45,172 nt of DNA, from positions 1 through 45,172 of the forward strand of contig JBGUMY010000294.1 of NCBI GenBank assembly GCA_045117095.1, written 5' to 3'. The notes under the pieces are model-generated. The model was not told the DNA's origin and made no database searches. It saw nothing but the letters and a program-made list of their open reading frames with translations. A program made the position numbers and the translations under genes. Of the stretch, positions 4,327 to 26,100 are shown one piece after another (within the stretch, counting starts at the first letter, position 1; every line of letters starts with the position of its first letter). This DNA comes from Bacteroidaceae bacterium. Its GTDB lineage: Bacteria; Bacteroidota; Bacteroidia; Bacteroidales; Bacteroidaceae.

Positions 4327-4355
4327 GTAAACCCCTGACGAGGTTTTGAAAGTAT
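4327..4355 (+). promoter_or_regulatory. GTAAAC-N18-AGTAT bipartite motif (copy upstream of the holin-like gene)
   Basis: GTAAAC at 4327-4332, exactly 18 nt, then AGTAT at 4351-4355. The next ATG is 32 nt downstream. Confidence 0.45.
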
Positions 4356-4386
4356 AATGTGTATTAACCCTTAAAACAATAAAAGT

Positions 4387-4560
4387 ATGAGTAAGAAAGT
4401 ATTTGCATTGGTCAGCGGCATCGTGGGTGCCCTTCAGACCATCGGTGTGGCGATCGTGACCTACATCGCCCCAGAAAATGCCACGGCAATCAATTCCGCC
4501 ATCGTTGTAGTGGGTGCTGCCATCATTGAGGTATGCACAAAGTTTGTGAAGCCTGAGTAG
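4387..4560 (+). CDS. Small two-TM membrane protein, holin candidate (57 aa, below the ORF-track cutoff)
   Basis: Hand translation gives MSKKVFALVSGIVGALQTIGVAIVTYIAPENATAINSAIVVVGAAIIEVCTKFVKPE. It has two hydrophobic segments and sits at the head of the lysis cassette. Confidence 0.45.
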   Translation: MSKKVFALVSGIVGALQTIGVAIVTYIAPENATAINSAIVVVGAAIIEVCTKFVKPE

Positions 4561-4561
4561 T

Positions 4562-5206
4562 ATGAAACGACTCGACTCATTGGAAGCCTCTTACCGCTGT
4601 TGCTGGTGGGGCTTCTGGCTTTTTGTTATCCTGCTGGCGGTCGGCTGGCTGACGAGTTGCACCACGACGAAGGTAACTGAAAACGCCCACTCATTATACA
4701 AATCCGACAGCACGCAGATTCAGCGGCTGATCGACACCCGCATAAGGTCGATACAGCAGCAGATGGATTCTGTATGGAGCGAGCGCATGAATCAGTACGT
4801 GTCGCAACAGCAGCAGTCGGAACAACAGCACGAAGTGATCACGGAGACTGTCACAACGACGCTTGATTCTCTTGGGCGAGAGATCAGGCAGGAACAGCGC
4901 ACCATCTCGCGTGACATTAGTCGTGAGCAACAGATTATTGAGCAACGACTGACGCGCGAATTTGAGTCACGTCTGCAAACTGCCATATCTGAACTTGACA
5001 GCAGTTGGCAGTCGCGCTACGATTCTATCCAGGCGGTTACCGTGCGAGAAGACTCTACCAGCGTGGAGAAGACACCAGTCAGCGGCAGTGGTCTAAGTTG
5101 GTGGCAGCAGGCGCGGATTCACCTGGCGAATATCCTACTTTACGGGTTGGTGATCGTTGGAATCATTCTGCTCGGAAAGTGGCATCTGAAAAAACTCAAG
5201 CCGTGA
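4562..5206 (+). CDS. Lipobox-bearing protein with Gln-rich coiled coil and C-terminal TM anchor (unimolecular-spanin-like topology)
   Basis: N-terminal signal ending LTSC, C-terminal TM LANILLYGLVIVGIILLG. Starts 2 nt after the holin-like ORF. Confidence 0.45.
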   Translation: MKRLDSLEASYRCCWWGFWLFVILLAVGWLTSCTTTKVTENAHSLYKSDSTQIQRLIDTRIRSIQQQMDSVWSERMNQYVSQQQQSEQQHEVITETVTTTLDSLGREIRQEQRTISRDISREQQIIEQRLTREFESRLQTAISELDSSWQSRYDSIQAVTVREDSTSVEKTPVSGSGLSWWQQARIHLANILLYGLVIVGIILLGKWHLKKLKP

Positions 5207-5257
5207 GGCTTCATGCCTGCCAGTGATGGTCGGCAAATCTATCATAATTTGAATTTT

Positions 5258-5326
5258 AGCCCGATGGCCTTTCGCATACGACATATTATATACCTCATTG
5301 GCAAAAGATTCATCGGCCATCGGGCT
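5258..5326 (+). terminator. 12-bp perfect inverted repeat with 45-nt spacer followed by a T-run
   Basis: AGCCCGATGGCC (5258-5269) pairs with GGCCATCGGGCT (5315-5326), then TTTT. Confidence 0.4.
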
Positions 5327-5447
5327 TTTCCTTTGATAAGCTCAGGAACCTTTCTAATACTTAGGAAAGGCTGCGATTAAGCGAGAGCAATACCAAATCT
5401 CATTTGAGCATTGCCGAGCGTGAGCAGGCTCACCAATCGGCACGATT

Positions 5448-5477
5448 GGTAAACCCTAAACCCGTTTTTGCGCGAAT
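5448..5477 (+). promoter_or_regulatory. GGTAAAC-N18-CGAAT bipartite motif
   Basis: GTAAAC at 5449-5454, 18 nt, CGAAT at 5473-5477. ATG 5503 is 26 nt downstream. The hairpin CCAATCG-GCA-CGATTGG lies immediately upstream, its 3' arm overlapping the leading GG of the motif. Confidence 0.55.
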
Positions 5478-5502
5478 TATAAAGTTTGATAATTCAGTAA
5501 AA

Positions 5503-6033
5503 ATGGAAATTACATTAGACTCAATCATTGGTATCCTTGGACTGCTGTTCGGTGGCGGTGCCATAGGTGGTATATTCACTTGGCGGTGGCAACGCGCCAG
5601 GGCGAAAGCTGAAGCCAAGGAGAAGGAAGCCGAGGCGAAATCGGCTGAAGTGGAAATGGCGCAGAAGGTGCAAGACACCTATCAGCAGATGCTTGAAGAC
5701 AAGCAGAAGGAGGTGGACGACAACCACCGGCTGATTGCCGAACTTCGCGAAGACCGTGACCATTACAAGCAGGGCTATCTGGAGTTCCGCGAACAGGTGG
5801 ATAAGTTACAGAGAGATTTCAGTAAGTTCCGCAGTGAGACAGAAGACGAGCGTGAGAAGATGAAGCGCGACATCGCCCGAAACGGGCGGCAACTGGAGTG
5901 TCTGCGCCCTTTCCTATGCGGACGGGAAGACTGCGCATTGCGCGTGCCCGTAACCATCTCGCAAGTAGGGGAAATTAGCAAGCCTGACGGCAATAAGGAT
6001 CACCAGGACATCGAACCCTATAACGAAGGATAA
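5503..6033 (+). CDS. N-terminal TM plus long coiled-coil protein (holin- or i-spanin-like lysis accessory)
   Basis: Start moved to the in-frame ATG at 5503 because the listed 5404 start would run through the promoter motif. TM segment IIGILGLLFGGGAIGGIFTW, followed by an EAKEKEAEAK coiled coil. Confidence 0.45.
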   Translation: MEITLDSIIGILGLLFGGGAIGGIFTWRWQRARAKAEAKEKEAEAKSAEVEMAQKVQDTYQQMLEDKQKEVDDNHRLIAELREDRDHYKQGYLEFREQVDKLQRDFSKFRSETEDEREKMKRDIARNGRQLECLRPFLCGREDCALRVPVTISQVGEISKPDGNKDHQDIEPYNEG

Positions 6034-6036
6034 CCT

Positions 6037-6483
6037 ATGAACACCAAAGTAACCATGCACTTCACGATCGAAGAACTTTACGCCTCGAAGACCGCCAAGG
6101 ATAAGGGTATCAACAATATGCCATCTGTGCGCGAGATGGTGAACCTCATATATCTTGCAGCCTACGTGCTGGAGCCCTTGCGCAAGGCGATGGGCGAACC
6201 CATCAAGATTGGCAGCGGCTTTCGCTGTCAGCAGCTGAACAGAGCCGTGGGCGGTGTCTCCAACTCGCAGCACCTCACCGGGCAGGCCGCTGACCTCTGC
6301 ATAGACGGCGACCTGAAGAAGGGCAAGCGGTGGTTTAACTACATCAAAGACCACCTGCCGTTTGACCAGCTCATCTGGGAGCACAACCCAAAGACGGGAT
6401 CGTACTGGGTGCATGTCTCGTTCGTATATCCCGATTTCGGAAAGAACCGTCGAAAGGTGATCAATAACCTGGAGAAGAAATAG
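6037..6483 (+). CDS. Peptidase M15-family (zinc D-Ala-D-Ala carboxypeptidase-like) endolysin
   Basis: SGFRCQQLNRAVGGVSNSQHLTGQAADL ... WVHVS matches the H-x6-D...H metal-site pattern of Peptidase_M15. Position is at the end of the lysis cassette. Confidence 0.75.
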   Translation: MNTKVTMHFTIEELYASKTAKDKGINNMPSVREMVNLIYLAAYVLEPLRKAMGEPIKIGSGFRCQQLNRAVGGVSNSQHLTGQAADLCIDGDLKKGKRWFNYIKDHLPFDQLIWEHNPKTGSYWVHVSFVYPDFGKNRRKVINNLEKK

Positions 6484-6656
6484 TCAGCAATCTTACGTTA
6501 TTATTTATATATCAGTTTTTATGTTAGTAGTTTTTTCATAGTTTAGCATTAATTTTTGAAGTTACAATTTTTAGGTTTTTAGTTATTGGAAAATTCATTC
6601 TATTTTTTCGGATTGCGAGAATTAGAAAAATGAAAGTAATGGTTAGTAGATTATTT

Positions 6657-6685
6657 GGGCTTGCAGCGGCGAGCCCATTTTTTTT
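6657..6685 (+). terminator. Rho-independent terminator
   Basis: GGGCTTGC-AGCG-GCGAGCCC followed by A and T8. Confidence 0.7.
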
Positions 6686-6716: not shown

Positions 6717-6746
6717 GGTAAACCCACGACCGCAAAACCCTTTATA
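6717..6746 (+). promoter_or_regulatory. GGTAAAC-N18 motif (weak downstream half, TTATA)
   Basis: GTAAAC at 6718-6723 with the CCACGACC spacer signature. Preceded by the hairpin CCATTTTCC-N8-GGAAAATGG. Confidence 0.4.
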
Positions 6747-6806
6747 GTAAAAAGGGTGCTACCCTTTATAGTAAAAAGGGGGTACCCCGTTTATAGTATA
6801 AACCCT
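6737..6806 (+). repeat. Three 24-nt-spaced hairpin/iteron units (ACCCTTT-ATAGTAA-AAAGGGT x2, plus the variant TTTATAGTATAAAC)
   Basis: Units at 6737-6757, 6761-6781 and 6784-6806. The same triplet recurs at 36663-36730. Confidence 0.8.
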
Positions 6807-6821: not shown

Positions 6822-7400
6822 ATGATCGACTACAAAGGACAGCTTAACATGGGCAACGAGGCCCTACAGAGTGAGAAAACGATTACCGCCAATGAAGTGC
6901 TCCGCACCTGCGACACGAAGGCTCTGGCTCGTGAGATTTCGCATCAGAACGCGCTCATCCCCGAACAGGTGGCAGCAGCCGTGCTGGAGAACTTCTGCAA
7001 GGCAGCAGCAGAGAAGATGGCCGAGGGATTCGCCATCCAACTGAACGCTGGCGACGAGGTGGCCATCCGCATCTTCCCCGACATCCACATCAAGGGCGGC
7101 AATATCAATCTCGCCCGCGCCAAGGAGCTCGACCCGACGGTGACGGAACTGACGGCAGAGAACGCAGGCAGTCTCATCGACAAGGCCGGTGGCGTGACGG
7201 TTCGCGTGCGCTCTACCTGTATGCAGAAGTTCACCGACCTGCTCGACGGCGAGGGCATTCAGGTGAAGCGCGTCGGCATCGAGACCAAGGCCTATGTCGC
7301 CAAGACCGGCAACGGCGACGACGAAGGCGAGGGTGACGACAACACCCAGCAGGGCGGTGGTGACAACAACAACCCACCAAGCGGCGGACTGGAGGGATAA
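6822..7400 (+). CDS. HU-like DNA-binding protein with Gly/Asp-rich tail (Bacteroidota HU-HIG type suspected)
   Basis: Start moved to ATG 6822, downstream of the repeat array. The LAREISHQNALIPEQVAAAVLENF...MAEGFAIQL pattern resembles Bacteroides histone-like proteins. Assignment is from memory only. Confidence 0.4.
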   Translation: MIDYKGQLNMGNEALQSEKTITANEVLRTCDTKALAREISHQNALIPEQVAAAVLENFCKAAAEKMAEGFAIQLNAGDEVAIRIFPDIHIKGGNINLARAKELDPTVTELTAENAGSLIDKAGGVTVRVRSTCMQKFTDLLDGEGIQVKRVGIETKAYVAKTGNGDDEGEGDDNTQQGGGDNNNPPSGGLEG

Positions 7401-7404: not shown

Positions 7405-7433
7405 GTAAACCCCAAACCATGTTTTTCCCGATT
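7405..7433 (+). promoter_or_regulatory. GTAAAC-N18-CGATT bipartite motif
   Basis: GTAAAC at 7405-7410, 18 nt, CGATT at 7429-7433. It overlaps the hairpin CCCGATTAGTG-N5-CACTAATCGGG plus T-run. Confidence 0.45.
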
Positions 7434-7465
7434 AGTGACAGCCCACTAATCGGGCATTTTTGATA

Positions 7466-8083
7466 ATGGCTGACACAGGTACAATCGAAATCAAAGGACT
7501 CGACGAGCGCATCAAGCAGTTCGGTGAAGCGTCCACGAAGAACCCCATGATGCGGAAACGTATCAATGAGGTGATCCGTGCGATGATGAAGGATGTGCGC
7601 AAAAGGCTTCAGAGCGATGCGCAGAGCGGACTACAGATGAAGGAAGACCCGCGCAAGGCTTACAAAGCCGTGAAGATGGCCGTGTACCGCAAAATCTTCG
7701 GTGGTAACGTCAGCCTCTATTCTCCGAGGAAGGCAGGTACGATGCGTTACTATGAGCCACCGCGTCACCCAGCGCGTCGCGGCGGCAACCGCATGAAGCA
7801 GTCGGATCGCACCCACGACATGATGAGTTACACAGGTGGCGACCGCTGGATGGTGTTGCAGTGGCTCAACAACGGCACGAAGGAAAGATACAGCGGCAAC
7901 GGACGCAACGGTAAGACCGATGCACAGCGCAACGCCTTCATTGAGCGCACAGGCGGACGAGGCAAGCGTGGCAGCATAGCACCGCGCAACTGGTTCGGTC
8001 CCAAGTCCTCTCAGGAACTTATGGCAGCAGCAGCTAACATCGACAAGATGATCGACGACATCGTAGCAGGAATATTGTATTAA
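7466..8083 (+). CDS. Virion-associated protein (HK97 gp10-like tail component suspected)
   Basis: First ATG in the ORF, immediately upstream of the tape measure. Basic, Gly/Arg-rich centre. Confidence 0.35.
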   Translation: MADTGTIEIKGLDERIKQFGEASTKNPMMRKRINEVIRAMMKDVRKRLQSDAQSGLQMKEDPRKAYKAVKMAVYRKIFGGNVSLYSPRKAGTMRYYEPPRHPARRGGNRMKQSDRTHDMMSYTGGDRWMVLQWLNNGTKERYSGNGRNGKTDAQRNAFIERTGGRGKRGSIAPRNWFGPKSSQELMAAAANIDKMIDDIVAGILY

Positions 8084-8095
8084 ACAACAACATAT

Positions 8096-10168
8096 ATGGG
8101 AGACGTAATTACCAGATTTAAGCTCGAAACGACACAGTTTGACTCCAAGCTGAGAGATGAAGCCAAACGCCTGAGTGATTTGACAAACCAACTATCACTG
8201 GCAGGAAAGGACTTTAATAAGTTCGCACAACAGCACGTGGAGACTGCCCGTTCATTCGGTCAGGTAGCGAGTGGAGCAACCAATCTGAAAGATAAACTAA
8301 GGGATTTGGTCGGCGCGTACAACAAAGTGGCCAATGCATACAATGCCATGGCCAAAGATCAGCAGCAGACAGACTATGGTAAGGCACTGGCAGAAAGTCT
8401 TCAGAAGTTACAGGGCGACATCCGTCAGACTAAGGAAGAAATGAACGCTATGCCTGGTGTACTCGACAAACTGACAGACAGATTCACCGTAAATATAGAT
8501 GCCATCAAATTGTTCAATGTCGGTCTGCAAGCAGCTGAAGGTGCGTTGAAGGTGGCGAAGGATGCGTTCTTTGCATCAGAGGCAAACGTGGACGAGTGGG
8601 GTAGAATCGTACAATCAAGCAAGAGTGTCTATGAAGGATTCCTGACGGCTTTGAACACTGGCGACATCAGCGGTTATCTGAGCCGTATCGACGAGATTGT
8701 GAGTGCTGCCCGTACAGCCTACAACGAATTGGACCGCCTTGGAACGATGAAGACCATCCAGGCACCAGCGATGAGCGCACAGCAGACAGAAAACGAGCGT
8801 ATGAGGATGATGATCCAGACGGGTCGTTATATCGCACCGATGGACGGTCGTAAGGCTACCATGCAGAATGGTCAATTATTGACACCCGATCAGATACGTC
8901 GTATTGAACAGATGCTTCAGGGCGGTATGCAAAAAATGGTGACACTTGTCGGTAATGAAGTGAATCAGACTGGCAAAGCCATTGATGCCCTTTACACCAG
9001 TCAGGCAAAAGACCTCGGTTTGAGTCTGAAAGAGTTCAGGAAAGGCACATCCTCAATGGCTGAGTTTGACAAGCGCATGGCAGGTTATGACCAATATCAG
9101 CAGTGGCGTGCCGCTCATACGACCATCGACCAACAAAGTGGTCGTGAAATTGTAGCGCGTGGTAATCCTTTCGCGCAATATGCCAAATGGGGTGCATTCC
9201 GTGTGGATGGTGACAGATACAATCAGTTGGTGCAACTGATCCAACAGCGCAACCAACAACAATCAAGTGCATATGGTATGCAGTCGCAAGCCTACCGCGC
9301 CATCAACCGTGCAGAGGGTATCACGCTCAACAGCATTATGGGTCGTGGCGGTTCTGGCGGTAGATCTGGCAAAAAGAATATGCCTGAATATGCCGACTTT
9401 TCCAAACTGCTGTTCAAGAATGGTAGTCAGGATTTACAGGCTGAAGCACCATTTATGAGTGTGTTCAGTATGCTGAAAGATAAGTCGGAATTTGACCCTG
9501 AAAATATTCTTGGATCAAAGAGCGCATGGGAGAGTTATAAAGATACAATCACAGAAACCGTTGGAAGCGTCGGCGAATCAATGAGTAACCTCACGCAGTG
9601 GACTGCTGATTTTAATCCTTACAAGGAGAATATGGATAAACTCACCAAGTCTGCCAAGCAGAACCAGATGGCGATGGGTCTTGCTTCGCAAGCCGTGAAT
9701 GCCTTTGGCTCCGCACTTTCAGGCATGGAAGATCCAGGTGCGAAAGCAGCGGGTACGGTGATGCAGGCACTTGGTAGTATCGCCCTCGGTTTTGCAATGG
9801 CCTCTGCTCAAGCGAACACCGCCGGCACAGGTTGGGGATGGCTTGCTTGGGTGGCCGCTGGTTTGGCAGCCATGACCACCGCCATCAGCACCGTGCATCA
9901 GCTAACAGGCTACGCACAAGGTGGTATTGTGGAAGGAAATTCGTACAGTGGCGATAATATGATGTTCGGTGGCGACGGGCTGTATGGTCTGAATGCTGGT
10001 GAGTTAGTGCTCACGAAAGCGCAACAAAGCACGTTAGCGAGTGCGCTCCAGGGCAACGGACTTCAGAACATGAACATCGCAGGCAGGATCAAGGGCACGG
10101 ACATCATTCTTTCGATCGACCGCTCACTGAAACTTGAAGGCAAGCAACTGCTGACATGGGGACGATGA
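8096..10168 (+). CDS. Tail tape measure protein
   Basis: 690 aa. Long helical N-terminal part, then a Gly/Ala-rich hydrophobic block (GSIALGFAMASAQANTAGTGWGWLAWVAAGLAAM), then GGIVEG...NAGELVLT, as is typical of tape measure proteins. Confidence 0.8.
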   Translation: MGDVITRFKLETTQFDSKLRDEAKRLSDLTNQLSLAGKDFNKFAQQHVETARSFGQVASGATNLKDKLRDLVGAYNKVANAYNAMAKDQQQTDYGKALAESLQKLQGDIRQTKEEMNAMPGVLDKLTDRFTVNIDAIKLFNVGLQAAEGALKVAKDAFFASEANVDEWGRIVQSSKSVYEGFLTALNTGDISGYLSRIDEIVSAARTAYNELDRLGTMKTIQAPAMSAQQTENERMRMMIQTGRYIAPMDGRKATMQNGQLLTPDQIRRIEQMLQGGMQKMVTLVGNEVNQTGKAIDALYTSQAKDLGLSLKEFRKGTSSMAEFDKRMAGYDQYQQWRAAHTTIDQQSGREIVARGNPFAQYAKWGAFRVDGDRYNQLVQLIQQRNQQQSSAYGMQSQAYRAINRAEGITLNSIMGRGGSGGRSGKKNMPEYADFSKLLFKNGSQDLQAEAPFMSVFSMLKDKSEFDPENILGSKSAWESYKDTITETVGSVGESMSNLTQWTADFNPYKENMDKLTKSAKQNQMAMGLASQAVNAFGSALSGMEDPGAKAAGTVMQALGSIALGFAMASAQANTAGTGWGWLAWVAAGLAAMTTAISTVHQLTGYAQGGIVEGNSYSGDNMMFGGDGLYGLNAGELVLTKAQQSTLASALQGNGLQNMNIAGRIKGTDIILSIDRSLKLEGKQLLTWGR

Positions 10169-10204
10169 AAGGTAAAAAGGTAAAAGGGTAAAAAAGTAAA
10201 AGAT

Positions 10205-10576
10205 ATGGCAGTATTAGGTAATAACATCATCGTGTTTATGAACGGGCAGGCAATAGCCGGCACGAAGAGCGACGAGATACAGGTGGATAGTGAGACCATC
10301 GAGATAGCCAGCGAGACGGATCAGGATTGGGTGCATGTGTTGGCAGGGCGCAAGTCGTGGAGTCTGAACGTGGGTTGGCTCGTGCTGGCCAATCAGGACG
10401 TGAGAAAGGTGCTGCTGGCTGGTTCGGTAGTCACCATCAAGATAAAAGCGCGTGGCGAAAGCGACAGCAGCGGACTTCAAAGCGCGGCCATCCTGAAGAC
10501 GGTGAAGATCACCGCAGTCAGGGGAAATTTGGCAAATGGCTCTTTCGCTTTCGTCGGTAACGGACCATTAATATAA
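10205..10576 (+). CDS. Small tail-tube-fold protein (TP901-1/Phage_tail_2-like pattern)
   Basis: The GTKSDEIQVDSETIEIASETDQDWVHVLAGRKSWSLNVGW ... FVGNGPL pattern is shared with the N-terminus of the 29018 gene product. Confidence 0.4.
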   Translation: MAVLGNNIIVFMNGQAIAGTKSDEIQVDSETIEIASETDQDWVHVLAGRKSWSLNVGWLVLANQDVRKVLLAGSVVTIKIKARGESDSSGLQSAAILKTVKITAVRGNLANGSFAFVGNGPLI

Positions 10577-10583
10577 GACAGTT

Positions 10584-12662: not shown

Positions 12663-12664
12663 AT

Positions 12665-13864: not shown

Positions 13865-13868
13865 AAAC

Positions 13869-15419: not shown

Positions 15420-15435
15420 TAAAAAGTAAGGAACT

Positions 15436-15750: not shown

Positions 15751-15774
15751 GGGGAGCAGCGGCTCCCCTTTTTT
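15751..15774 (+). terminator. Rho-independent terminator
   Basis: GGGGAGC-AGCG-GCTCCCC followed by T6. Confidence 0.75.
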
Positions 15775-15804: not shown

Positions 15805-15834
15805 GGTAAACCCACGACCATATTTCGGGCGAAT
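15805..15834 (+). promoter_or_regulatory. GGTAAAC-N18-CGAAT bipartite motif
   Basis: GTAAAC at 15806-15811, 18 nt, CGAAT at 15830-15834. ATG 15861 is 27 nt downstream. Confidence 0.55.
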
Positions 15835-15860
15835 TGGTAGATAAAATATAGTTTTGAAAT

Positions 15861-16430: not shown

Positions 16431-16445
16431 AAAAACATCAATATT

Positions 16446-19400: not shown

Positions 19401-19610
19401 ACCGGCGCAGGCTTGCATACCTATGTGGGCAAGTATAACTGGTTCACGGGTGGTAATGCCAGTGCTGGGAAAAAGTCGGTCCGTGGCTTCCGGCGCGGCT
19501 TCACCGCTAACCTCCCGTACCTGTCTCCGTTGGCGTTGGTCGCGTACCTTTCGCCCTCGAACTCGCACTCGAGCATCGGCTTCGGCACCTGTTGTCGCAT
19601 AGCGGAATAG
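16446..19610 (+). CDS. DGR target protein: fibre-like receptor-binding protein with C-terminal variable region
   Basis: 1054 aa. N-terminal repeated YYTK/NYYLK stalk modules. The last ~45 codons (VRGFRRGFTANLPYLSPLALVAYLSPSNSHSSIGFGTCC) are the VR copy of the downstream TR. Confidence 0.85.
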   Translation: MADYRLSQSGDEVQNILDNAALRAQLTAETERATDAETHLQQNINAEAQTREQADGTLQQHITALADQIAQTLNNYYLKSETMSAQEIQTLVSQTIAAYYTKLQVDALIHDFITASVDNLVNYYLKSETFTKDEVNQLIAAVKQFRYQSVPTLPTASADTMGIIFLVPSTNPKTKNTKDEFITTSSTNEQGVTVYDWEQIGTTTVDLSGYSTTEQMNAAIASAISTALASYYTKSETMSTAQVNAAIEQAVNTALANYYTKAQTDAAISTALNTALASYYTKAETNGLLDTIRQSITAETGARTEADAALRQLINQVSASLVNYYLKTETYSKSEVQQLIDAVKQFQYLVVPTLPATPGPDTMGIIFLVPSTNPKTQNVKDEYITILDGSTYKWEHIGDTNIDLSGYSTTAEMNAAIASALTAYYTKEQVDGMVATINAAIAQKAAQSDLTAEVSRAQQAEQANADAIAALQDIVADIETIAEGYVRVAGSSSPALSYKSYKYHEQGGFGRESVFSLFYPCLVGTPLTGAGTEGKVLHVLQKFGARTIDGTPKWLDIYGTPHAIDGSEGDVLIVNIEPFYSINGKHVIEGTEYDVFLMSRTPFTWQGIEAEHMEKFGWSPDYCVSHTDTDNVVRMHSVYNPAWNGSYQAPQGVAGKYVYSVDPETGDIVETYDANETLLGGAGGLHSTDINLPDGEQRAMNMNADPTKTVPWMNQTAEGSNRLMSLILAEGGTFDAHNATRMGSGFSSNDPATAAGDWDQAGSGAKNGLRVMDKNGAWKYYGFNGNVRFLKGATTGTVNAAEVINSWRNPWHIMEAHRAMSYAIENDVHELEWFVFEGNKYKYRSVQDFNGPSHGEMTCVVWKLMATQAGANAIDPSDNATSIAGNRVEILVSTALVHGMTTQVSPSWWTSGLLFTEDENGQYECFIERDQAEVVKSIAADNYDPATPRDFETIYDHVLTVQKGEGYAKNYLNGALMLPDSNANKTGAGLHTYVGKYNWFTGGNASAGKKSVRGFRRGFTANLPYLSPLALVAYLSPSNSHSSIGFGTCCRIAE
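16806..16995 (+). repeat. Internal module duplication, copy 1 (NYYLKSETFTKDEVNQLIAAVKQFRYQ...DTMGIIFLVPSTNPKT)
   Basis: Recurs 603 nt (201 codons) downstream. Shares the perfect stretch GACACGATGGGCATCATATTCCTCGTACC. Confidence 0.8.
17409..17598 (+). repeat. Internal module duplication, copy 2
   Basis: NYYLKTETYSKSEVQQLIDAVKQFQYL...DTMGIIFLVPSTNPKT, in frame with copy 1. Confidence 0.8.
19475..19610 (+). repeat. DGR variable region (VR)
   Basis: 19475-19594 aligns without gaps to 19940-20059 (offset 465). There are 21 mismatches and every one lies at a TR adenine. Gapped similarity continues to the stop codon. Confidence 0.9.
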
Positions 19611-19749
19611 AAAACGTAAACCCGCCCGAACGAAGTGAGGGCCGCTGAGCGAAAGCGAAGCCGTAAACTGCGCGGCTTGGCGCGCCCTCCGAGCGATAGC
19701 GAAGGCACCCATACCGCCGCAAGGCGGTCGGCTCGAAAATTCAAAAATA

Positions 19750-19787
19750 GAGGTCATCTCCAGCGATGGGGATGGCCTCGTTTTTTT
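19750..19787 (+). terminator. Rho-independent terminator after the DGR target gene
   Basis: GAGGTCATC-N12-GATGGCCTC (one G-U pair), then G and T7. Confidence 0.65.
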
Positions 19788-19790
19788 CTG

Positions 19791-19820
19791 GGTAAACCCC
19801 AGACGGCATTTCGCCCAAAT
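19791..19820 (+). promoter_or_regulatory. GGTAAAC-N18-CAAAT bipartite motif upstream of the TR and RT
   Basis: GTAAAC at 19792-19797, 18 nt, CAAAT at 19816-19820. The TR starts about 120 nt downstream. Confidence 0.5.
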
Positions 19821-19939
19821 AGTGTGGAGATGTGGTGCGACATCGTTGAAACAGAAATCCATGCCACCGACCAAATAGCACAAGGGAATCGGAGTACCCG
19901 TCAGGTGGTGAGGTTGAAATAAGGCGGCTGCACTGTACG

Positions 19940-20075
19940 GTCGGTCCGTGGCTTCCGGCGCGGCAACAACGCTAACAACACGAACCTGTCTCCGTTGACG
20001 ATGAACGCGAACAATTCGCCCTCGAACACGAACTCGAACATCGGCTTCGGCAACTGAAACGCAGTAACGAAATAC
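19940..20075 (+). repeat. DGR template repeat (TR)
   Basis: Invariant copy rich in AAC codons (AACAAC, AACACGAAC, AACAAT...). It contains an in-phase TGA, so it is not a coding duplicate. Confidence 0.9.
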
Positions 20076-20267
20076 ATAAGCCCTCGATTGCTTAGACCTG
20101 AGCATGAAGAGACAGGTGCAGAGCCTCGCTGACGCTGGAGAGCGAAACAACGCAGGAAAAGGTGCTAAGACCACCAGCCGACCGCGCAAGAATGAGCGAA
20201 GGAGAGGGTAGGCTGCAAGGCGTTCGGAAACCTTGCTATCGGCGCAACAGGTCAAGACAAAAAAATT

Positions 20268-21584
20268 ATGACATCAACATGGAACAACATCACCACTGGC
20301 CTTCACGCTGCCGTATATGACAGCTACACGGCCAAGAGCTCACGTCAACGCGCCAAGCGTGAGGTGGTGGAGGTCATGGCAGATGTGGACGGATTCTGCC
20401 AGCGCAAGCGGCATGAACTGGAGTGTGACACCTACCGCATAGGCGACTATCGTCACTTCCGCCTAAAAGATAAGAAGAAGGAGCGCGACATCTCGGTATT
20501 GCCCTACGAAGACCGATGTGTGCAGAACGCCATCAAGGATGCCATAGAGCCGCTATTGCTCCGTCAGATGACCGACGACATGATGGGCGGTCTGCCTAAT
20601 TGCGGGGTACTGGCAAGCGACAAGCGGCACCAGGTGGTGGCACGAGTGCGGGTGCTCATGAACGACCGCTCGCTGAAGTATTGCTTGCAAGGCGACATCA
20701 AAAAGTTCTACGACCATGTGGATAATGTCATCAGTATGCAGCTCATTGAGCGGCAGGTAAAAGACAAGCGCACAAGGGCTGTCATACGTCAGCACCTCTT
20801 CAACCAGAAGCGGCTCGCCATCGGTGATCCATTCAGCCACCTTATCGCCAATCTCAATATGTCGGTCATCATTCGCAAGGCAAAGGAGCTGTACGGCGAT
20901 AGCATCAAGGTAGTCAATTTTGCCGACGACTTCATCGCCTTCAGCAAGGACAAAGAGACGCTGAATGCCCTGCGACGCGATATGCAGCAATGGGCAAAGA
21001 CGATGCGGTTACACTACAAGCCGATGTATGTGCGTCCCGTTGACGGTCAGGACATCATCTTCTGCGGCTACAAGTTCGGGCGTGGCTACGTTCACCTGAC
21101 CCAGCACACGAAGAAACGCTACGTCAAGGCCCGCCACAAGAAGCGCAGTATAGGCTCCTATCAAGGCATCATCGGAGTGGCAGACACGAAGCATCTGAAA
21201 CTAAAAATTCAAATAAACGACAATAAAGGAACTATGAGCGAGAAAATCAGACGACCCTTTGCAGGGCGACCCATGAAAATGGAAACAATGGAAGGTATCA
21301 ACCATACCATTGTGGACTTCCAGAAACGCAGCAGCAACCAAAAGGACTGCGACAGTTACTACCACATTCAGGCACTTGCCGACGGGCTGGGATTGATAGT
21401 GTATAGCACCGGCGCACAGAAGATATGCAAGTACCTGGACACCAAGAGCCGCACGGACATCCCACTGCGCGACATGAAGATAGTGCATGACTGGAGCGGC
21501 TTCTACTATGACGGCACCGTATATACCGATGCCGAGGAAGAAGAAATGATTCGCAAACAATTTAACATACCCAAATCAGCATGA
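20268..21584 (+). CDS. DGR reverse transcriptase with an additional 116-aa C-terminal module
   Basis: RT motifs are present: ERDISVLPYEDRCVQ, GDIKKFYDHVD, IGDPFSHLIANL, VVNFADDFIAFS. It lies immediately downstream of the TR. The RT-sized core ends near aa 322. Confidence 0.85.
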   Translation: MTSTWNNITTGLHAAVYDSYTAKSSRQRAKREVVEVMADVDGFCQRKRHELECDTYRIGDYRHFRLKDKKKERDISVLPYEDRCVQNAIKDAIEPLLLRQMTDDMMGGLPNCGVLASDKRHQVVARVRVLMNDRSLKYCLQGDIKKFYDHVDNVISMQLIERQVKDKRTRAVIRQHLFNQKRLAIGDPFSHLIANLNMSVIIRKAKELYGDSIKVVNFADDFIAFSKDKETLNALRRDMQQWAKTMRLHYKPMYVRPVDGQDIIFCGYKFGRGYVHLTQHTKKRYVKARHKKRSIGSYQGIIGVADTKHLKLKIQINDNKGTMSEKIRRPFAGRPMKMETMEGINHTIVDFQKRSSNQKDCDSYYHIQALADGLGLIVYSTGAQKICKYLDTKSRTDIPLRDMKIVHDWSGFYYDGTVYTDAEEEEMIRKQFNIPKSA

Positions 21585-21916
21585 GACAAGAAAGATTCAA
21601 TGAGCCTCACAAGCAAGGCTTGGAGCGGCTCACAGGCGACAACACAGGACTGGTGTACTGCAACGAGCGCACCGAAGTAGTGACCGACGAAGAGGGCAAC
21701 GAGAAGACTGAGTACGTTTACGACGTGTATGAGGTCACAGATGCCCGCGACCCTCACAAGGTGAAGAACGAGGTAATAGAGAATGAGCACCCCTTCGGCG
21801 ACGAAACGAAGATACTCCGCAAGACCTTGGCCAAGGTTCTGAAGGCATCAGGTCAGTATGACAGCGAGGAATACGCAGAGTTCAAGCAGTACAACGAGTT
21901 TGCCGAAAGCGTCTAA
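21581..21916 (+). CDS. Acidic hypothetical protein translationally coupled to the RT (ATGA overlap)
   Basis: Start codon overlaps the RT stop. 111 aa, Glu/Asp-rich. Confidence 0.5.
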   Translation: MRQERFNEPHKQGLERLTGDNTGLVYCNERTEVVTDEEGNEKTEYVYDVYEVTDARDPHKVKNEVIENEHPFGDETKILRKTLAKVLKASGQYDSEEYAEFKQYNEFAESV

Positions 21917-21920
21917 CAAG

Positions 21921-21953
21921 AAATCCCGAGCCATAGAGGTTCGGGATTTTTTT
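21921..21953 (+). terminator. Rho-independent terminator
   Basis: AAATCCCGA-N11-TCGGGATTT followed by a T-run. Confidence 0.7.
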
Positions 21954-21963
21954 ATTTATCAAT

Positions 21964-21993
21964 GGTAAACCTACGACCGCTTTTTGTCCGAAT
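21964..21993 (+). promoter_or_regulatory. GGTAAAC-N18-CGAAT bipartite motif
   Basis: GTAAAC at 21965-21970, 18 nt, CGAAT at 21989-21993. ATG 22021 is 28 nt downstream. Confidence 0.55.
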
Positions 21994-22020
21994 GGTAGAA
22001 GACAAAAAAGAGAATCAGAT

Positions 22021-22608
22021 ATGAATGAACAGAATGAAACGGGCTTGAAGTGGCTGAGCATTGATGCCATCCACCAGCACTGCCGAATCGACTTCAACTG
22101 CGAGGATGCAGAACTGGAGCAATTCGGTATTGCAGCCGAGCAAGCCATCCTCGACCTCACGCGGCGCACGTATGAGAACTTCATCGATACCTATGGCCGC
22201 ATTCCCGACCCCATCTTCAACGCCTCGCTGTTGCTGGTGCAGAACCTCTACAACAACCGCGACGCTGCCGACACGCAGAAGAAAGAGGCATCGCTCTACG
22301 GCTTCGACCTGTTGCTGAAGAACTACATGGTGCTGACGGGTGGCACACCTCTCCAGGTGGAGCGCGACGGGTTGCTGGATAAACTCACGGTGGTGATGAC
22401 CGAGTTTGACTTTGACTTCGGGGAAATCTCCGAACCGAGCGAGGAACTTGTGGAAGCCTACGACACCCAGCGCAGGAACATGGCCGCACTCTACAACCGC
22501 TATGCCTTCATCCAGCAGCCGACCTCTTACATCTGCGGGAAATTCCGTGATGCCATCGCCAAGGCGAAGGAGGACTGCGACGAGATCATCAACCAACAAA
22601 ACAAATAG
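22021..22608 (+). CDS. Head-tail connector (gp6-like, Phage_connect_1 type N-terminal domain)
   Basis: The LSIDAIHQHCRIDFNCEDAELEQFGIAAEQAILDLTRR pattern is typical of gp6-like connectors. Confidence 0.6.
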   Translation: MNEQNETGLKWLSIDAIHQHCRIDFNCEDAELEQFGIAAEQAILDLTRRTYENFIDTYGRIPDPIFNASLLLVQNLYNNRDAADTQKKEASLYGFDLLLKNYMVLTGGTPLQVERDGLLDKLTVVMTEFDFDFGEISEPSEELVEAYDTQRRNMAALYNRYAFIQQPTSYICGKFRDAIAKAKEDCDEIINQQNK

Positions 22609-22611
22609 GCT

Positions 22612-22956
22612 ATGGGATATAGTGCAGGATTCTTACACGACATGATTCAGGTGCTCAACCGCAAGGAGGCGAAGACCAGTAAGTTTGGTCTCGACGGTGG
22701 CGGTGTGGAGTGGGAAGAAGGCCCGTGCCTTCACGCCAACGTGGACTATCAACGCGGCAAGTCGGCCATGAATGCCGGAAGCCTCGATGCCTATGCGGTG
22801 AAGATTGTGCGCATGAGGTGGACGAATGTGTTCAATGAGCGCAGCCGCGTGAAGTATCTCGACAAGACGTATCAGATCATCCCCGAGACGTGGAACGCGA
22901 ACCACCGCGAGAACACGCTGCAATTTCTGATGCAGCTGATTGTGAATGATAAGTGA
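22612..22956 (+). CDS. Head closure / head-tail adaptor protein
   Basis: 114 aa. The VKIVRMRWTNVFNERSRVKYLDKTYQI pattern is like SPP1 gp16 and HK97 gp9 family members. Follows the connector gene. Confidence 0.55.
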   Translation: MGYSAGFLHDMIQVLNRKEAKTSKFGLDGGGVEWEEGPCLHANVDYQRGKSAMNAGSLDAYAVKIVRMRWTNVFNERSRVKYLDKTYQIIPETWNANHRENTLQFLMQLIVNDK

Positions 22957-22996
22957 TTTTAGACAGAAGAACATAAGAACACAAATATCCCAGATT

Positions 22997-23860
22997 ATGG
23001 CAAAACAAAAAGGAACTACAGAGAAGAAGCCACGGACGGCTGAGAAGGCGACCAAGGCGCAGAAGCTGCCGACATTCACGGGTGAGCGTGAGGTGGCGAT
23101 GGTGCATTTCAATACGCCAGAGATCACGACGGCTGCAATATTGAGTATCAGGAAGCATGGCGGTGAGAAGTATCATGTGACCATCTTTGACAACAGCGCA
23201 GACTCTGAGACGAGTGAGGGACTGAACAAGGCCCGTCCGTTCAAGTTGCCGAAGGACAAGGCAGATCGCGAGAAACTGGGCGACGTGACGGTGATTGACA
23301 ACACCAAAGGTCAGATTATCGACTTCGACAATGAATTAGAAAAGTACCCCGACCGCGAGCCGCATTGGGCGATGCTGTCAAACTTCGGTAGCTTCAAGCA
23401 TATCATCACCGTGCAGAAGTTGTGGGAGATACTGCCAAACGGTTTCGTGCTGTTGGAAGGTGACGCACTGATCAAGAAGCCGATTGACTGGATGTGGCGC
23501 AAGGAGTTTGCAACCGTCGGCAAGATCGAATGGAGACCGAACAATCCCGTGGTCATTCCCAGGTACTACCCGTTTCTGTTGTATATGAACGTGCCGAAGC
23601 TCGTAGCCAAGGGTGTGAGTTTCTTCGACCCCATGCGCTGCTGGGCCTTGCAGAAGGGAGAAATGACTCGCGGAAACTGGTACGACACGGGCGCATCGTT
23701 GCTGGAGGATGTTATCAACGGCAAGCCTGAGCTTGTAGGATGGAACGTGAAGGAACTGACGGAATACTACGACCACTATCACGGTGGTTCCTGGCGCAGA
23801 CTCGATGTCAAGAATCAAATCAACTGGCTCAACCAAAGGAAAGCACTATGGCAGATATAA
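22997..23860 (+). CDS. Glycosyltransferase-like protein (GT-A/GT2-like N-terminus)
   Basis: First ATG after the upstream stop. VAMVHFNTPEITTAAILSIRKH...VTIFDNSAD resembles a GT2 Rossmann start. Weak, from memory. Confidence 0.4.
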   Translation: MAKQKGTTEKKPRTAEKATKAQKLPTFTGEREVAMVHFNTPEITTAAILSIRKHGGEKYHVTIFDNSADSETSEGLNKARPFKLPKDKADREKLGDVTVIDNTKGQIIDFDNELEKYPDREPHWAMLSNFGSFKHIITVQKLWEILPNGFVLLEGDALIKKPIDWMWRKEFATVGKIEWRPNNPVVIPRYYPFLLYMNVPKLVAKGVSFFDPMRCWALQKGEMTRGNWYDTGASLLEDVINGKPELVGWNVKELTEYYDHYHGGSWRRLDVKNQINWLNQRKALWQI

Positions 23861-24561
23861 AACCATTGACCATCTGGACGGTGTACCACGATGACAAGCA
23901 GATTGCGGAGTACGGACTGAAAGAGACGGACACGCGCAAGCTGTACGCGAATCACCACACGGATGCAGACCATGAAGTGAACGTGCTGAATCCTGCGTGG
24001 TCGGAGTTGACGGCGATGTTCTGGATTTGGTGGAACACCACCGACACCCAGTGCATCGGCATCAATCACTACCGCAGACAGTTTGAGCCGAAACGACTGC
24101 CGAACAATGGAGAGGTGTGCATCTACCAGTTGGATAACTGGGGCAGCGAAACGGTGGCACAGCAGTTTGCACGTCACCACGGACAAATGGCTCTCGACAT
24201 CATGATTAAATGTCTGCGTGAGCATGACGATAATGGCGAGCGGTATGCAAGCAATATCCTTAATGCTCATCTGCTGGTTAGGAGTTGTTGCTTTGTGATG
24301 ACCACTAAGGACTACGACAGCATGGTAGAGTGGCTTTTCCCGCTGCTGAAGAAAATCCGTCGCAGACTGATTGGCGACCCAGACACTCAGGAAGATGAAC
24401 TGAAACGATGGCGCGACTATGCCGTGAAGCATTTCGGTGAAGAGAATGCCGACTATCAGATGCGGTGTATCTCATTCATCGGTGAGCGGCTGACCTCCGC
24501 GTGGATCATGGAGAACCTGAACATCATCCAAATCGAGCACAAAGCATCGGTAAACCCGTGA
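23848..24561 (+). CDS. DUF4422-family glycosyltransferase-like protein
   Basis: NPAWSELTAMFWIWWN...CIGINHYRRQF...ISFIGERLTSAW matches the DUF4422 signature seen in capsule/EPS loci. Its ATG at 23848 overlaps the upstream gene by 13 nt. Confidence 0.6.
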   Translation: MADIKPLTIWTVYHDDKQIAEYGLKETDTRKLYANHHTDADHEVNVLNPAWSELTAMFWIWWNTTDTQCIGINHYRRQFEPKRLPNNGEVCIYQLDNWGSETVAQQFARHHGQMALDIMIKCLREHDDNGERYASNILNAHLLVRSCCFVMTTKDYDSMVEWLFPLLKKIRRRLIGDPDTQEDELKRWRDYAVKHFGEENADYQMRCISFIGERLTSAWIMENLNIIQIEHKASVNP

Positions 24562-24578
24562 CGTGTTTTTGTACGAAT
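24549..24578 (+). promoter_or_regulatory. GGTAAAC-N18-CGAAT bipartite motif
   Basis: GTAAAC at 24550-24555, 18 nt, CGAAT at 24574-24578. The portal ATG at 24596 is 18 nt downstream. Confidence 0.55.
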
Positions 24579-24595
24579 ATAAAAAGGTAAAAGAT

Positions 24596-25963
24596 ATGAA
24601 ATTATTTGGATTCTTACCGACGGGAATGCTCCCAGTGCGACAGCGCGAGACACCACAGGCACCGATACCAGGTGTTCCATCGAGCACCATGCCGAAAGAG
24701 CAGTCGAAGACGGTGACGGGCGGTGACTATCAGGAGCGCATCGCCTATGTGCGAGGCCCTGAGCAGGCGTTGGTCGTGGGTGCGGTGTATCGTGCCGTCA
24801 ATCTCCGCGCCGACACGATGAGCGTCATGCCCGTGCAATATCAGAAGCGAGACTTCGAGAAAGGCAACTATTACGTGGATATGCGCGGTCTCGGTAAGCG
24901 ACTGAACTATCTGCTTCAGGAAGAGCCGAACCCCATCATGAGCGCATCGGACATGTGGAAACTGGTGGAGATCAACCGCCTGTTCTACGGCAACAGTTTT
25001 GTGTATATCGAGCGCGACGAGTTCGGATTCCCATTACACCTGTGGCTGGTGAAGTCGGGCGGTTACAACGTGAACACAGGCCGCTTTGTGGGTATCACCT
25101 ATCTGACCGACCACGGCTATATGACGATGCCAGACGTGCCGCGTGAAGACCTGTTGCACTTCCCAAATACCTTCCGTTATCTGAACGGTATATGGGGCAT
25201 CCCGACGCTTCAGTATGCCATCGAGACGCTTTCGCTGAACCGCACCCTGCGCTCGCAGGCATTGGAAACAGCGGCCAAGGGTGGACGTGTGAAACTGATC
25301 ATCGGTGAAGAGAAACCCGCCAGCGGTCAAGGCACGCTCGCATTCGGACTGATGAACAAGGGCGAAATGGACTCATACGCCCAGGAACTCCAAAAGAAGA
25401 TGTACAGCGGTCACGACATCCTCGCCATCCGTGGGCTTGATAAGGTGCAGAACATCTCAATGACCTCTGCCGAGATGCAGATGTTCGAGCAGATGGGTGC
25501 CACGAACGATGACGTGAGCAGATTCTTCGGTGTGCCTCGTCCGTTGTTGATGCTTGATACCAACTCACATTACAACGACTACCAGAACGCCACGATGGAG
25601 TTCCACACGCGAACCATTCTGCCGCAGAAGACAGGCAACGAGAAAGAAATCTTCCGCAAACTCATCGGCTTCAAGGATTATGGCATCAGACGTATCCACA
25701 TCTGCGAAGACCCACTCATGGCAATGGATCCAGAGCGTAGGGCAAAGGTGGCACTCATGAAACTACAGGCAGCCATCGCCACGCCGAACGAGATACGTGC
25801 CGAGTTTGACATGCCGACCGTGGAGGATGGCGACGTGCCAATGGCAAGTGCCAACCTGATGACGCTGAAGGCACTCATCGCCAAGAGCGACGCAAGCACC
25901 CAGCTGAAGCCCGGCAACTACACCGTGGGAGAACCGCCAAAGGAGGGCGAGGATCAGCAATGA
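24596..25963 (+). CDS. Portal protein (HK97 family)
   Basis: Start placed at the ATG after the AAAAGAT leader. About 455 aa. Followed by protease and capsid genes in the canonical order. Confidence 0.75.
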   Translation: MKLFGFLPTGMLPVRQRETPQAPIPGVPSSTMPKEQSKTVTGGDYQERIAYVRGPEQALVVGAVYRAVNLRADTMSVMPVQYQKRDFEKGNYYVDMRGLGKRLNYLLQEEPNPIMSASDMWKLVEINRLFYGNSFVYIERDEFGFPLHLWLVKSGGYNVNTGRFVGITYLTDHGYMTMPDVPREDLLHFPNTFRYLNGIWGIPTLQYAIETLSLNRTLRSQALETAAKGGRVKLIIGEEKPASGQGTLAFGLMNKGEMDSYAQELQKKMYSGHDILAIRGLDKVQNISMTSAEMQMFEQMGATNDDVSRFFGVPRPLLMLDTNSHYNDYQNATMEFHTRTILPQKTGNEKEIFRKLIGFKDYGIRRIHICEDPLMAMDPERRAKVALMKLQAAIATPNEIRAEFDMPTVEDGDVPMASANLMTLKALIAKSDASTQLKPGNYTVGEPPKEGEDQQ

Positions 25964-26100
25964 ACGAACCATATAGAATCAAAACAGCCATCGCACCGCA
26001 GCCAATGAGCCGCGACGAAGTTGCAGAATATTTCGAGCGTAAGGCGCAAAATATGGCGGTAAACCCCAGACATGGTTCTGCCCGTATAATGAAACGATAA
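25960..26100 (+). CDS. Possible 46-aa ORF coupled to the portal stop (ATGA)
   Basis: Hand translation gives MNEPYRIKTAIAPQPMSRDEVAEYFERKAQNMAVNPRHGSARIMKR. It overlaps a promoter motif, so it may be non-coding. Confidence 0.25.
   Translation: MNEPYRIKTAIAPQPMSRDEVAEYFERKAQNMAVNPRHGSARIMKR
26058..26087 (+). promoter_or_regulatory. GGTAAAC-N18-CGTAT bipartite motif
   Basis: GTAAAC at 26059-26064, 18 nt, CGTAT at 26083-26087. ATG 26122 is 35 nt downstream. Confidence 0.5.

Follow-up and report, generated by a model that had tools for sequence, protein, structure and literature searches.

A bipartite motif with ECF-type layout as the probable late promoter of a family of temperate Bacteroidota phages

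Results

We describe a bipartite DNA motif, GTAAAC followed at a fixed distance by a CGAAT-like pentamer, that occurs nine times in a contig of 45,172 nt from a Bacteroidaceae bacterium (GenBank assembly GCA_045117095.1, contig JBGUMY010000294.1, positions 1 to 45,172; this whole stretch is referred to as the window). The window encodes a temperate siphophage and has a G+C content of 51%; the host of the phage is probably a rumen Prevotella. All nine copies stand in front of genes predicted to be expressed late. It is likely that the nine sites are late promoters with the bipartite layout of promoters read by extracytoplasmic function (ECF) sigma factors; that they are promoters, whether or not the layout is of the ECF type, we consider more likely still. 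A first-pass annotation, made from the sequence alone, had proposed late promoters with an ECF-like layout, and this appears to be the best-supported reading, as the comparisons of strand, position, conservation and start codons agree.

Nine copies of the motif and no weaker ones

The hexamer GTAAAC by itself is not clearly enriched: it is present in 22 copies on both strands where 13 are expected, and 22 was reached in six out of 100 shuffles. The extended core GTAAACYYNNRAC is found exactly nine times, always on the plus strand (0.13 expected), and nine was reached in none of the 100 shuffles, the control that the first-pass annotation had suggested. With a 38-nt weight matrix trained on relatives only (the window was left out), the nine sites score between 23.9 and 37.2 bits, and no other position on either strand exceeds −1.2. 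The window contains exactly nine copies, without weaker ones: the matrix scan gave no site in 1-4326 or 26100-45172, which include the lysogeny and early regions. The nine coordinates of the earlier annotation were all correct, as was its placing of every copy on the plus strand (9/9 for GTAAACYYNNRAC; Table 1).

The pentamer CGAAT lies 18 nt past GTAAAC at 5449, 15806, 21965 and 24550, and is present with at most two mismatches at four further sites. The fixed 18-nt gap followed by a CGAAT-like pentamer, which had been described for every copy, stands for these eight sites; the ninth, at 6718 (where the pentamer had been read as TTATA), is really a one-base-shifted variant with the −10 region TTTATAGTA, without CG and with an A-run in the spacer in place of the T-run. 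CG is found at motif positions 25-26 in six of the nine sites, and GTAAAC in all nine. The base before GTAAAC is a purine (G in seven out of nine, as had been noted), and the GAC or AAC seen earlier in the spacer is present in every copy as RAC, where R is a purine. The distance from pentamer to ATG is 17-34 nt (75 nt for a weakly HU-like gene, an exception already recognized), and the template repeat (TR) of a diversity-generating retroelement (DGR) begins ~115 nt 3' of the copy at 19792, close to the first estimate of about 120.

Conservation of the motif in one phage family

Relatives were collected as 160 loci fetched via portal and terminase proteins (~1.5 Mb in total). Nearly all of them are from rumen metagenomes, with one from a Prevotella sp. 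metagenome-assembled genome (MAG) and one from a Prevotellaceae MAG. Family members also come from IMG isolate genomes (IMGVR_UViG_2799112714_000001 and 2799112743_000001); for a third, possible one (2519899560_000026), the fetched part has the HTH gene alone in common. GTAAACC is found 465 times on the gene strand of these loci and 31 times on the opposite strand; a general matrix (score >10) finds 436 gene-strand sites and 0 on the opposite strand. From 387 unique sites we derived the consensus R-GTAAACC(C)-nn-R(A/G)C-nnnn-WWW-Y-G-nn-CGAww-AGTArA, numbered as R0, GTAAACC 1-7, C8, R11, A/G12, C13, W18-20, Y21, G22, C25 G26 A27, A30 G31 T32 A33 and A35. The bases G1 T2 A3 A4 A5 C6 C7 are conserved in 96-100% of the unique sites, C25 in 65%, G26 in 89% and A27 in 71%; the base before GTAAACC is A in 58% and G in 41%, and RAC is present in ~53%. 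The information content is ~0 at positions −19 to −1, i.e. there is no conservation 5' of position 0. The N18 register is invariant across the family, even where RAC is lost; window site 6718 looks one base shorter.

At positions 18-20, roughly half of the sites have AAA and the rest have TTT. We found no pairing-type or long-range covariation among the family sites, and no conserved hairpin or dyad within the element; positions 18-20 are therefore an A/T-tract and not part of a hairpin, and the lack of pairing covariation argues for recognition of DNA by a protein over an RNA structure. A hairpin in the spacer, suspected by eye, was rejected as it shows no covariation.

Retention at syntenic positions, another check suggested in the first-pass annotation, is seen in relatives with portals 63-91% identical: the motif is kept 5' of the portal and protease genes in most of them, while the sequence of the spacer drifts. 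A pattern scan across IMG/VR gave 118 new loci, of which 112 carry structural proteins common to the window, indicating that the motif belongs to this one phage family; the sites are on one strand only in 118 out of 118 loci. A pattern scan of bacterial genomes gave, among the matches listed, mostly chance matches and a few related prophage fragments (L264 in the Prevotella sp. MAG, L206 in a Prevotellaceae genome, L164 and L253). No motif was found in two related early/lysogeny regions (20.8 kb of L407 and the early part of L408). Judged from gene content, the motif is confined to the late region, which comprises genes for lysis, the HU-like protein, tail, DGR target, DGR TR and reverse transcriptase (RT), connectors, portal, and protease and capsid.

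The closest cultured phages by portal are the Bacteroides uniformis phages Bacuni_F1, F2 and F4 (29% identity). Bacuni_F1 is without the motif, and the GTAAACG repeats of Bacuni phages (at ~18.1-18.25 kb) were set aside as a cluster of another kind, which may be iterons of an origin. The late region had no Megablast match among GenBank phages, and our literature searches turned up no paper on this motif.

Start codons and the predicted transcription start

For 300 unique family sites we measured how far downstream the first ATG at the head of an open reading frame (ORF) lies. The ATG is exactly at motif position 35 in 22 unique sites; positions 33, 34 and 37 hold two to three sites each. The distribution peaks again at 47-48 and has a broad shoulder to ~65, with distances from 35 to >100 nt, and almost no start codons are found 5' of position 33, which is a hard lower bound. 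The proteins that start at these 22 sites have about a dozen different N-termini, among them those of protease orthologues (MKQT..): in several relatives the ATG of the protease gene is exactly at position 35, and the window counterpart has a predicted leader of 29 nt. In another example, the portal ATG is at position 47 of copy 8, and this copy is conserved 5' of the portal gene in relatives. Start codons that reach one fixed position and never pass it are expected from a transcription start near this position, and the distribution thus implies that transcription would begin at motif position ~33-35; where the ATG is at position 35, the mRNAs would sometimes be leaderless.

With +1 placed at position 35, GTAAACC falls at −34 to −28 and CGA at −10 to −8; the −35 element (7 bp) and the −10 element (5 bp) are then 17 bp apart. 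The predicted leaders in the window are 12-29 nt long, and 70 nt long for the HU-like gene. ECF promoters are marked by AAC within the −35 element and by CG within the −10 element. Spacers of 15-18 bp are the range used in ECF promoter models (Todor et al., bioRxiv 10.1101/2020.06.23.168245). The family spacer, GTAAACC-N17-CGAwt, falls inside this range.

Comparison with known promoter systems

Examples of ECF promoters are those of sigma-W (TGAAAC-N16-CGTA) and sigma-X (TGTAAC-N17-CGAC) in Bacillus subtilis. Like ECF promoters, the phage motif is bipartite, with AAC ending the −35 element, CG opening the −10 element and a rigid 17-bp spacer (by the 7-bp/5-bp count). In ECF promoters the start is ~5-8 nt past the −10 element; the start predicted here would lie ~6 nt past it. 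Unlike in ECF promoters, the phage −10 element is CGA(A/T) and not CGT, and there are extra conserved positions (RAC, A/T-tract and AGTA). The setting differs too: ECF sigma genes are usually autoregulated and paired with an anti-sigma gene in the same genome, and neither a cognate sigma gene nor an anti-sigma gene was found nearby or elsewhere in the phage, and the regulon would be a late region and not a stress regulon.

The motif resembles the late promoter sets of phages T4 (gp55, TATAAATA) and SPO1 (gp28, gp33/34) in its many copies of non-host consensus before late genes and in the temporal switch away from host-type early promoters. However, T4 and SPO1 encode the factor, and none is recognisable here; in addition, T4 late promoters have no −35 element, whereas the −35-like block GTAAACC is the strongest part of the present motif. 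Phage-specific late promoter sets are a known kind of system, and this motif would be a new member.

Promoters of the Bacteroidetes primary sigma factor (sigma-ABfr) have TTTG at −33 and TAnnTTTG at −7 (Ryan et al. 2020, PMC7366714). In the window the pattern TTTG-N17-23-TAnnTTTG is matched three times: at two predicted units, by a site that faces the repressor-like gene and one before the 43912-44438 cassette, and once inside the integrase gene; none is at a motif copy, and the family consensus is without such a box. The first-pass annotation was thus right to separate the motif from host-type promoters: the host phylum is the same, but sequence and geometry differ, and the TAnnTTTG box is present in zero out of nine copies. 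Bacteroides thetaiotaomicron has a further class, 'promoter motif 2', with elements at ~−10 and ~−30 and no sigma factor assigned to it (PMC7366714; PMC12596196); it is described with TGTT at −10 (PMC12596196) and is linked to oxidative-stress and stationary-phase genes. Our motif is like promoter motif 2 in being an alternative Bacteroidetes promoter class with boxes at ~−10 and ~−30, a likeness of layout.

With the systems of Mu (C/Mor), P2 (Ogr) and staphylococcal phages (RinA), the motif shares the setting: a temperate phage whose late genes would be silent in the lysogen and be switched on by a dedicated factor. In those systems the activator binds a site, usually a dyad, 5' of or over the −35 region of one or few promoters that have a host-type −10 box; here there would be nine promoters without dyad, upstream site or host-type −10 or −7 box. 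Promoters of a T7-type single-subunit polymerase, in which one contiguous conserved block of ~20 bp runs into +1, were also considered and rejected: the motif is bipartite with a variable spacer, and no polymerase-like ORF was found in the window, where the large ORFs encode tail proteins or the DGR target.

A model of late transcription and its alternatives

We propose that each element would be a bipartite promoter of the sigma-70 family, of the ECF (group 4) type. The −35 element would be RGTAAACC(C), followed by a spacer fixed at 17 bp, with an A- or T-tract at ~−17 to −15 and, in this genome, RAC at ~−24 to −22; the −10 element would be CGAwt, followed by AGTA, and transcription would start at a purine ~6 nt past it (motif position ~33-35). 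The reader would be the host core RNA polymerase, directed not by the Bacteroidetes primary sigma but by another specificity factor, which would be a host ECF sigma that the phage turns on or a phage protein too divergent to be recognised. Together with five terminators, these promoters would split the late region into units that could be shuffled between relatives without loss of expression.

Several points weigh against this model. The motif, its statistics, conservation and positions, and the terminators are observed, and promoter function is inferred entirely from them, as are, in their turn, the start site and what kind of factor is involved. In its third base the −10 element has A, where ECF promoters usually have T, and the conserved spacer (RAC and W-tract) and the downstream AGTA exceed a typical ECF promoter; from these extra conserved positions an accessory DNA-binding factor may be involved. 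That the motif is restricted to one family in IMG/VR would be easier to reconcile with a factor encoded by the phage than with a general host sigma, yet we identified no phage factor of this kind. Searches for a sigma factor were negative throughout: no sigma-70-family domain was found in the window with Pfam and PHROGs on ~65 ORFs (essentially all), in line with the first-pass annotation, which had seen no sigma-like gene; the lone Sigma70_r4 match (E=0.019) is inside a helix-turn-helix (HTH) protein of the XRE type and not above noise. Likewise, no sigma was found in 15,602 ORFs of the relatives (phmmer with RpoE and SigW sequences, and a regular expression for region 2), nor in four related early regions (L401, L406, L407 and L408) by their precomputed Pfam annotation.

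An alternative that we consider improbable is that GTAAACC, RAC and the W-tract form an operator, at which a phage regulator would activate weak primary-sigma promoters, or silence them in the lysogen; the XRE HTH protein (44229-44438) would be one candidate. An operator would account for information that is spread over ~35 bp, spacer positions included, and for the uniformity of RAC within genomes (z = −4.2), and the XRE HTH gene is in a cassette with a host-type promoter in the window, with the HTH gene and a terminator in ~18 related loci. But the sites have neither a TAnnTTTG −7 box nor a TTTG −33 box, so that the primary sigma would have nothing to bind; HTH dimers and activators such as Mu C and Ogr usually need a dyad or a conserved stretch 5' of position 0, and the motif has neither; and the HTH gene is not found in every well-covered relative (e.g. 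none in L115).

It is very improbable that the element acts in read-through RNA, be it as a processing site, a put-like antitermination signal or a translation enhancer. Its place just 5' of start codons, its A-rich 3' end and the position of several copies after terminators, as might be expected of an antitermination signal, would agree with a role in RNA; the lack of compensatory covariation and of a conserved hairpin does not, copies past strong terminators would meet little read-through RNA, and the best-conserved bases, GTAAACC, are the furthest from the gene. Moreover, ATG distances from 35 to >100 nt with a hard lower bound are the behaviour of a start site and not of ribosome positioning. 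Least probable of all is that the repeats are boundary sequences that promote mosaic exchange of modules among related phages, without a direct role in expression: the copies do lie at module borders, and module order does differ among relatives (L264, L408 and L407 versus the window, L123 and L148), but only ~13-20 out of 35 bases are common between copies (too few for homologous recombination), the sites have no site-specific recombinase associated with them, neither the strict polarity nor the fixed relation to start codons would be expected, and module exchange is better read as a consequence of per-module promoters.

Candidates for the factor that reads the motif

We see an even chance that the reader is a sigma-70-family (ECF-like) protein and not something new. 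RAC is more uniform within than between genomes (z = −4.2, 0/1000 shuffles; 9/9 in the window versus 0.53 in the family), which suggests a reader linked to the genome. This uniformity and the restriction to one phage family are hints of a phage-linked reader; a host ECF sigma is equally possible. We also entertain, as a tentative and rather doubtful idea, that the late programme of the whole Prevotella phage family needs a specificity factor outside the recognisable sigma families, in one of two ways. An early phage protein could release or hijack a host ECF sigma, by which the phage would place its entire late regulon under a stress sigma of the host; or a new promoter-recognition protein, encoded by the phage, could work with the Bacteroidetes core polymerase. 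Between these two, the genome-specific RAC and the family restriction favour the phage-encoded protein.

We clustered the ORFs of the relatives for a non-structural gene that accompanies the motif, and only the XRE HTH cassette stood out (~18 loci). In the window its ORFs span 43912-44438, behind a host-type promoter (TTTG-N20-TAtcTTTG, 43814-43845). The HTH gene and its downstream terminator are found in ~18 related loci at varying positions near the large terminase gene (TerL); most of these loci have in common the terminator GAGAGACATTCC..GGAATGCCTCTCTTTTTT, and the others have a second hairpin type. The XRE HTH protein is a candidate regulator only: it could be an immunity protein, a late-gene regulator or an antitoxin, and an XRE dimer is a poor fit to an asymmetric, sigma-like bipartite site. 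The genes just 5' of the first late promoter vary in relatives and, read by eye, are of Bro/KilAC-type (antirepressor-like) or DNA methylase-like.

Two conserved early proteins without assigned function, from families of 73 and 214 homologues, were modelled as further candidates and rejected, since their models show no resemblance to sigma domains or other PDB entries: the protein of 41359-42069 (pLDDT 71) has no PDB match below E=0.28, and that of 37249-38109, a long helical bundle (pLDDT 83, pTM 0.83), none below E=0.08. Sequence searches against PDB gave no match for these two proteins or for 44505-45041.

A DNA polymerase III beta sliding clamp is encoded just 5' of the terminase genes in one related locus that shares the early module of the window (L401, 12463-13611). 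This clamp recalls the clamp-dependent late transcription of T4; no motif copies were found in the 20 kb fetched of L401.

Terminators, predicted transcription units and module order

The late region would consist of nine units, most of them insulated from each other, each with its own promoter and with five terminators overall (Table 1): lysis 1, lysis 2, HU-like gene, tail, DGR target, DGR TR/RT, connectors, portal, and head plus tail tube. Strong intrinsic terminators are found 12-40 nt 5' of the copies at 6718, 15806, 19792 and 21965, which confirms the four terminators of the first-pass annotation (here placed at 6656, 15751, 19750 and 21918), and we add a fifth hairpin at 7427-7454. This hairpin overlaps the copy at 7405: read-through RNA could form the whole hairpin, and an RNA that begins at ~7439 would hold its 3' arm only. 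The same arrangement of a hairpin over the motif is present in relatives.

The 70-nt predicted leader of the HU-like gene contains three tandem hairpin units CCCTTTATAGTAAAAAGGG (6741-6805), each with the layout CCCTTT-ATAGTA-AAAGGG, and the first unit overlaps the −10 region of copy 3. The triple hairpin may be an autoregulatory site or a set of repeated start-site mimics.

The order of modules differs among relatives. Head genes come before tail genes in L264 (the Prevotella MAG prophage) and L408, and the DGR adjoins the integrase gene in L407; in the window, L123 and L148 the tail module comes after the lysis genes or the HU-like gene, hence before the head. The tail-plus-DGR block of the window (7405-21964) is bounded by the copies at 7405 and 21965, and the breakpoints coincide with motif copies; module shuffling would be tolerated because each module carries its own promoter. 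In the DGR, the variable repeat (19475-19591) and the TR (19940-20056) are 85% identical. The TR and the RT gene form a unit of their own between a terminator and a late-promoter copy, and with TR and RT under such a copy, we would expect mutagenic retrohoming to be coupled to late lytic expression. The 111-aa ORF 3' of the RT gene (21581-21916) has no Pfam match.

Table 1. Motif copies, terminators and gene modules of the window; the genes named for each copy are those that it is predicted to drive
Feature	Positions	Strand	Sequence and matrix score (bits)	Predicted role or remarks
Copy 1	4327..4363	+	GTAAAC..AGTAT; 23.9	Predicted to drive holin-like and spanin-like genes, 4387-5380; begins one base past the stop codon of ORF 3958-4326
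Copy 2	5449..5485	+	GTAAAC-N18-CGAAT; 30.7	Predicted to drive 5503-6033 and M15 endolysin, 6037-6483
Copy 3	6718..6754	+	Variant −10 TTTATAGTA; 29.2	5' of weakly HU-HIG-like 6822-7400
Copy 4	7405..7441	+	GTAAAC..CGATT; 33.7	Predicted to drive the tail module, 7466-15693: 207-aa gene (conserved before tape measure), tape measure, tail protein 10205-10576, conserved 692-aa protein, fibres
Copy 5	15806..15842	+	GTAAAC-N18-CGAAT	Predicted to drive 15861-16430 and DGR target gene, 16446-19610
Copy 6	19792..19828	+	GTAAAC..CAAAT	Predicted to drive DGR TR, 19940-20056, and RT, 20268-21584
Copy 7	21965..22001	+	GTAAAC-N18-CGAAT; 37.2	Predicted to drive connector/head-completion genes and two glycosyltransferase-like genes, 22021-24561
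Copy 8	24550..24586	+	GTAAAC-N18-CGAAT	Predicted to drive portal gene, 24596-25963; overlaps the end of ORF 23740-24561
Copy 9	26059..26095	+	GTAAAC..CGTAT	Predicted to drive protease, capsid, tail tube and putative chaperone genes, 26122-30797
Intrinsic terminator	6656..6677	+		Ends lysis unit; 40 nt 5' of copy 3
Hairpin and T-run	7427..7454	+		Overlaps −10 and predicted start of copy 4
Intrinsic terminator	15751..15768	+		Ends tail unit; 5' of copy 5
Intrinsic terminator	19750..19779	+		After DGR target gene; directly 5' of copy 6
Intrinsic terminator	21918..21952	+		Ends DGR unit; directly 5' of copy 7
Autonomous cassette	43814..44495	+		Promoter, 106-aa ORF, 69-aa XRE HTH (44229-44438), terminator
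Large terminase (TerL)	1-1146			C-terminal 381 residues; full-length relatives ~676-695 aa
Small ORFs	1179-4326			No assigned function
Lysis cassette	4387-6483			Includes M15 endolysin (6037-6483)
PHROG lysis match	4562-5206
Weakly HU-HIG-like gene	6822-7400			HU-HIG E=0.014, under the Pfam cut-off
Tail module	7466-15170			Tape measure; fibre with S74 chaperone domain
DGR target gene	16446-19610			1054 aa
Head and connector genes	22021-30797			Connectors, two glycosyltransferase-like genes, portal, protease, capsid, tail tube
Lysogeny block	30888-34545	−		Contains tyrosine integrase and HTH repressor-like gene
Early operon	36748-45041	+		DUF3127, AAA_25, primase, HNH, PAPS reductase

Implications of a probable late promoter set

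Transcription in Bacteroidota differs from the Escherichia coli paradigm, and to our knowledge almost nothing is known about the timing of late genes in their temperate phages. A defined late promoter of ~35 bp, with hundreds of natural variants and a predicted start, could be used as bait for the factor that reads it, and the motif could be used to annotate transcription units in rumen and gut viromes. It is also a possible orthogonal, phage-inducible promoter for Prevotella and other Bacteroidota. A DGR template RNA and reverse transcriptase under a late promoter would predict when tropism switching occurs, and per-module promoters would let the order of modules change among relatives with expression kept. 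The system would be considerably more interesting if its reader proved to be a host ECF sigma taken over by the phage, or a specificity factor of a new class.

Other features of the phage genome

The window is not a closed circle, as the TerL reading frame breaks off at the junction: ~295 N-terminal TerL codons, and anything that precedes them, are absent. Many independent related contigs start within ~100 codons of the TerL start of the window (~residue 295), including L095, L101, L113, L116, L124, L130, L141 and L149-L160, and L161 ends ~126 nt past a 178-aa ORF, the same as the window. The shared ends are probably assembly breaks at mosaic junctions between co-occurring relatives, and it is probably because of such breaks that the TerL N-terminus is missing.

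Two glycosyltransferase-like genes (22946-24561) are located directly 5' of the portal gene. The first (22946-23860) is GT2-like by eye, without Pfam or PHROG match, and is conserved in ~68 related loci; the second (23740-24561) is assigned to DUF4422. The pair hints at glycosylation of a component of the virion or the host. A lipoprotein gene (286 aa, with signal peptide and Cys) and a HIRAN-domain gene lie between the tail genes and the integrase gene (30888-32385, minus strand). They look like lysogenic-conversion or moron genes, and the same pair adjoins the integrase gene in L407.

A stretch of ~1.4 kb without convincing ORF (35300-36740) separates the early operon from an 89-aa ORF (35011-35280) that is excisionase-like by eye and has no Pfam match. 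Within this stretch a tRNA-like element (36075-36144, plus strand) is found by Rfam with 44 bits and is not called by ARAGORN; a degenerate tRNA, the remnant of an attachment site and a non-coding RNA are all conceivable.

Five consecutive small ORFs 3' of TerL (1160-3960) are preceded by a near-identical translation-initiation context, AAATTAAAGGAACTATG or AATAAGGAACTATG (e.g. at 1162-1181, 2008-2027, 2434-2453, 2978-2997 and 3941-3960). Bacteroidota are said not to use Shine-Dalgarno sequences, and a conserved initiation context is therefore odd; the same context is also found before many genes of the relatives, including the HTH gene.

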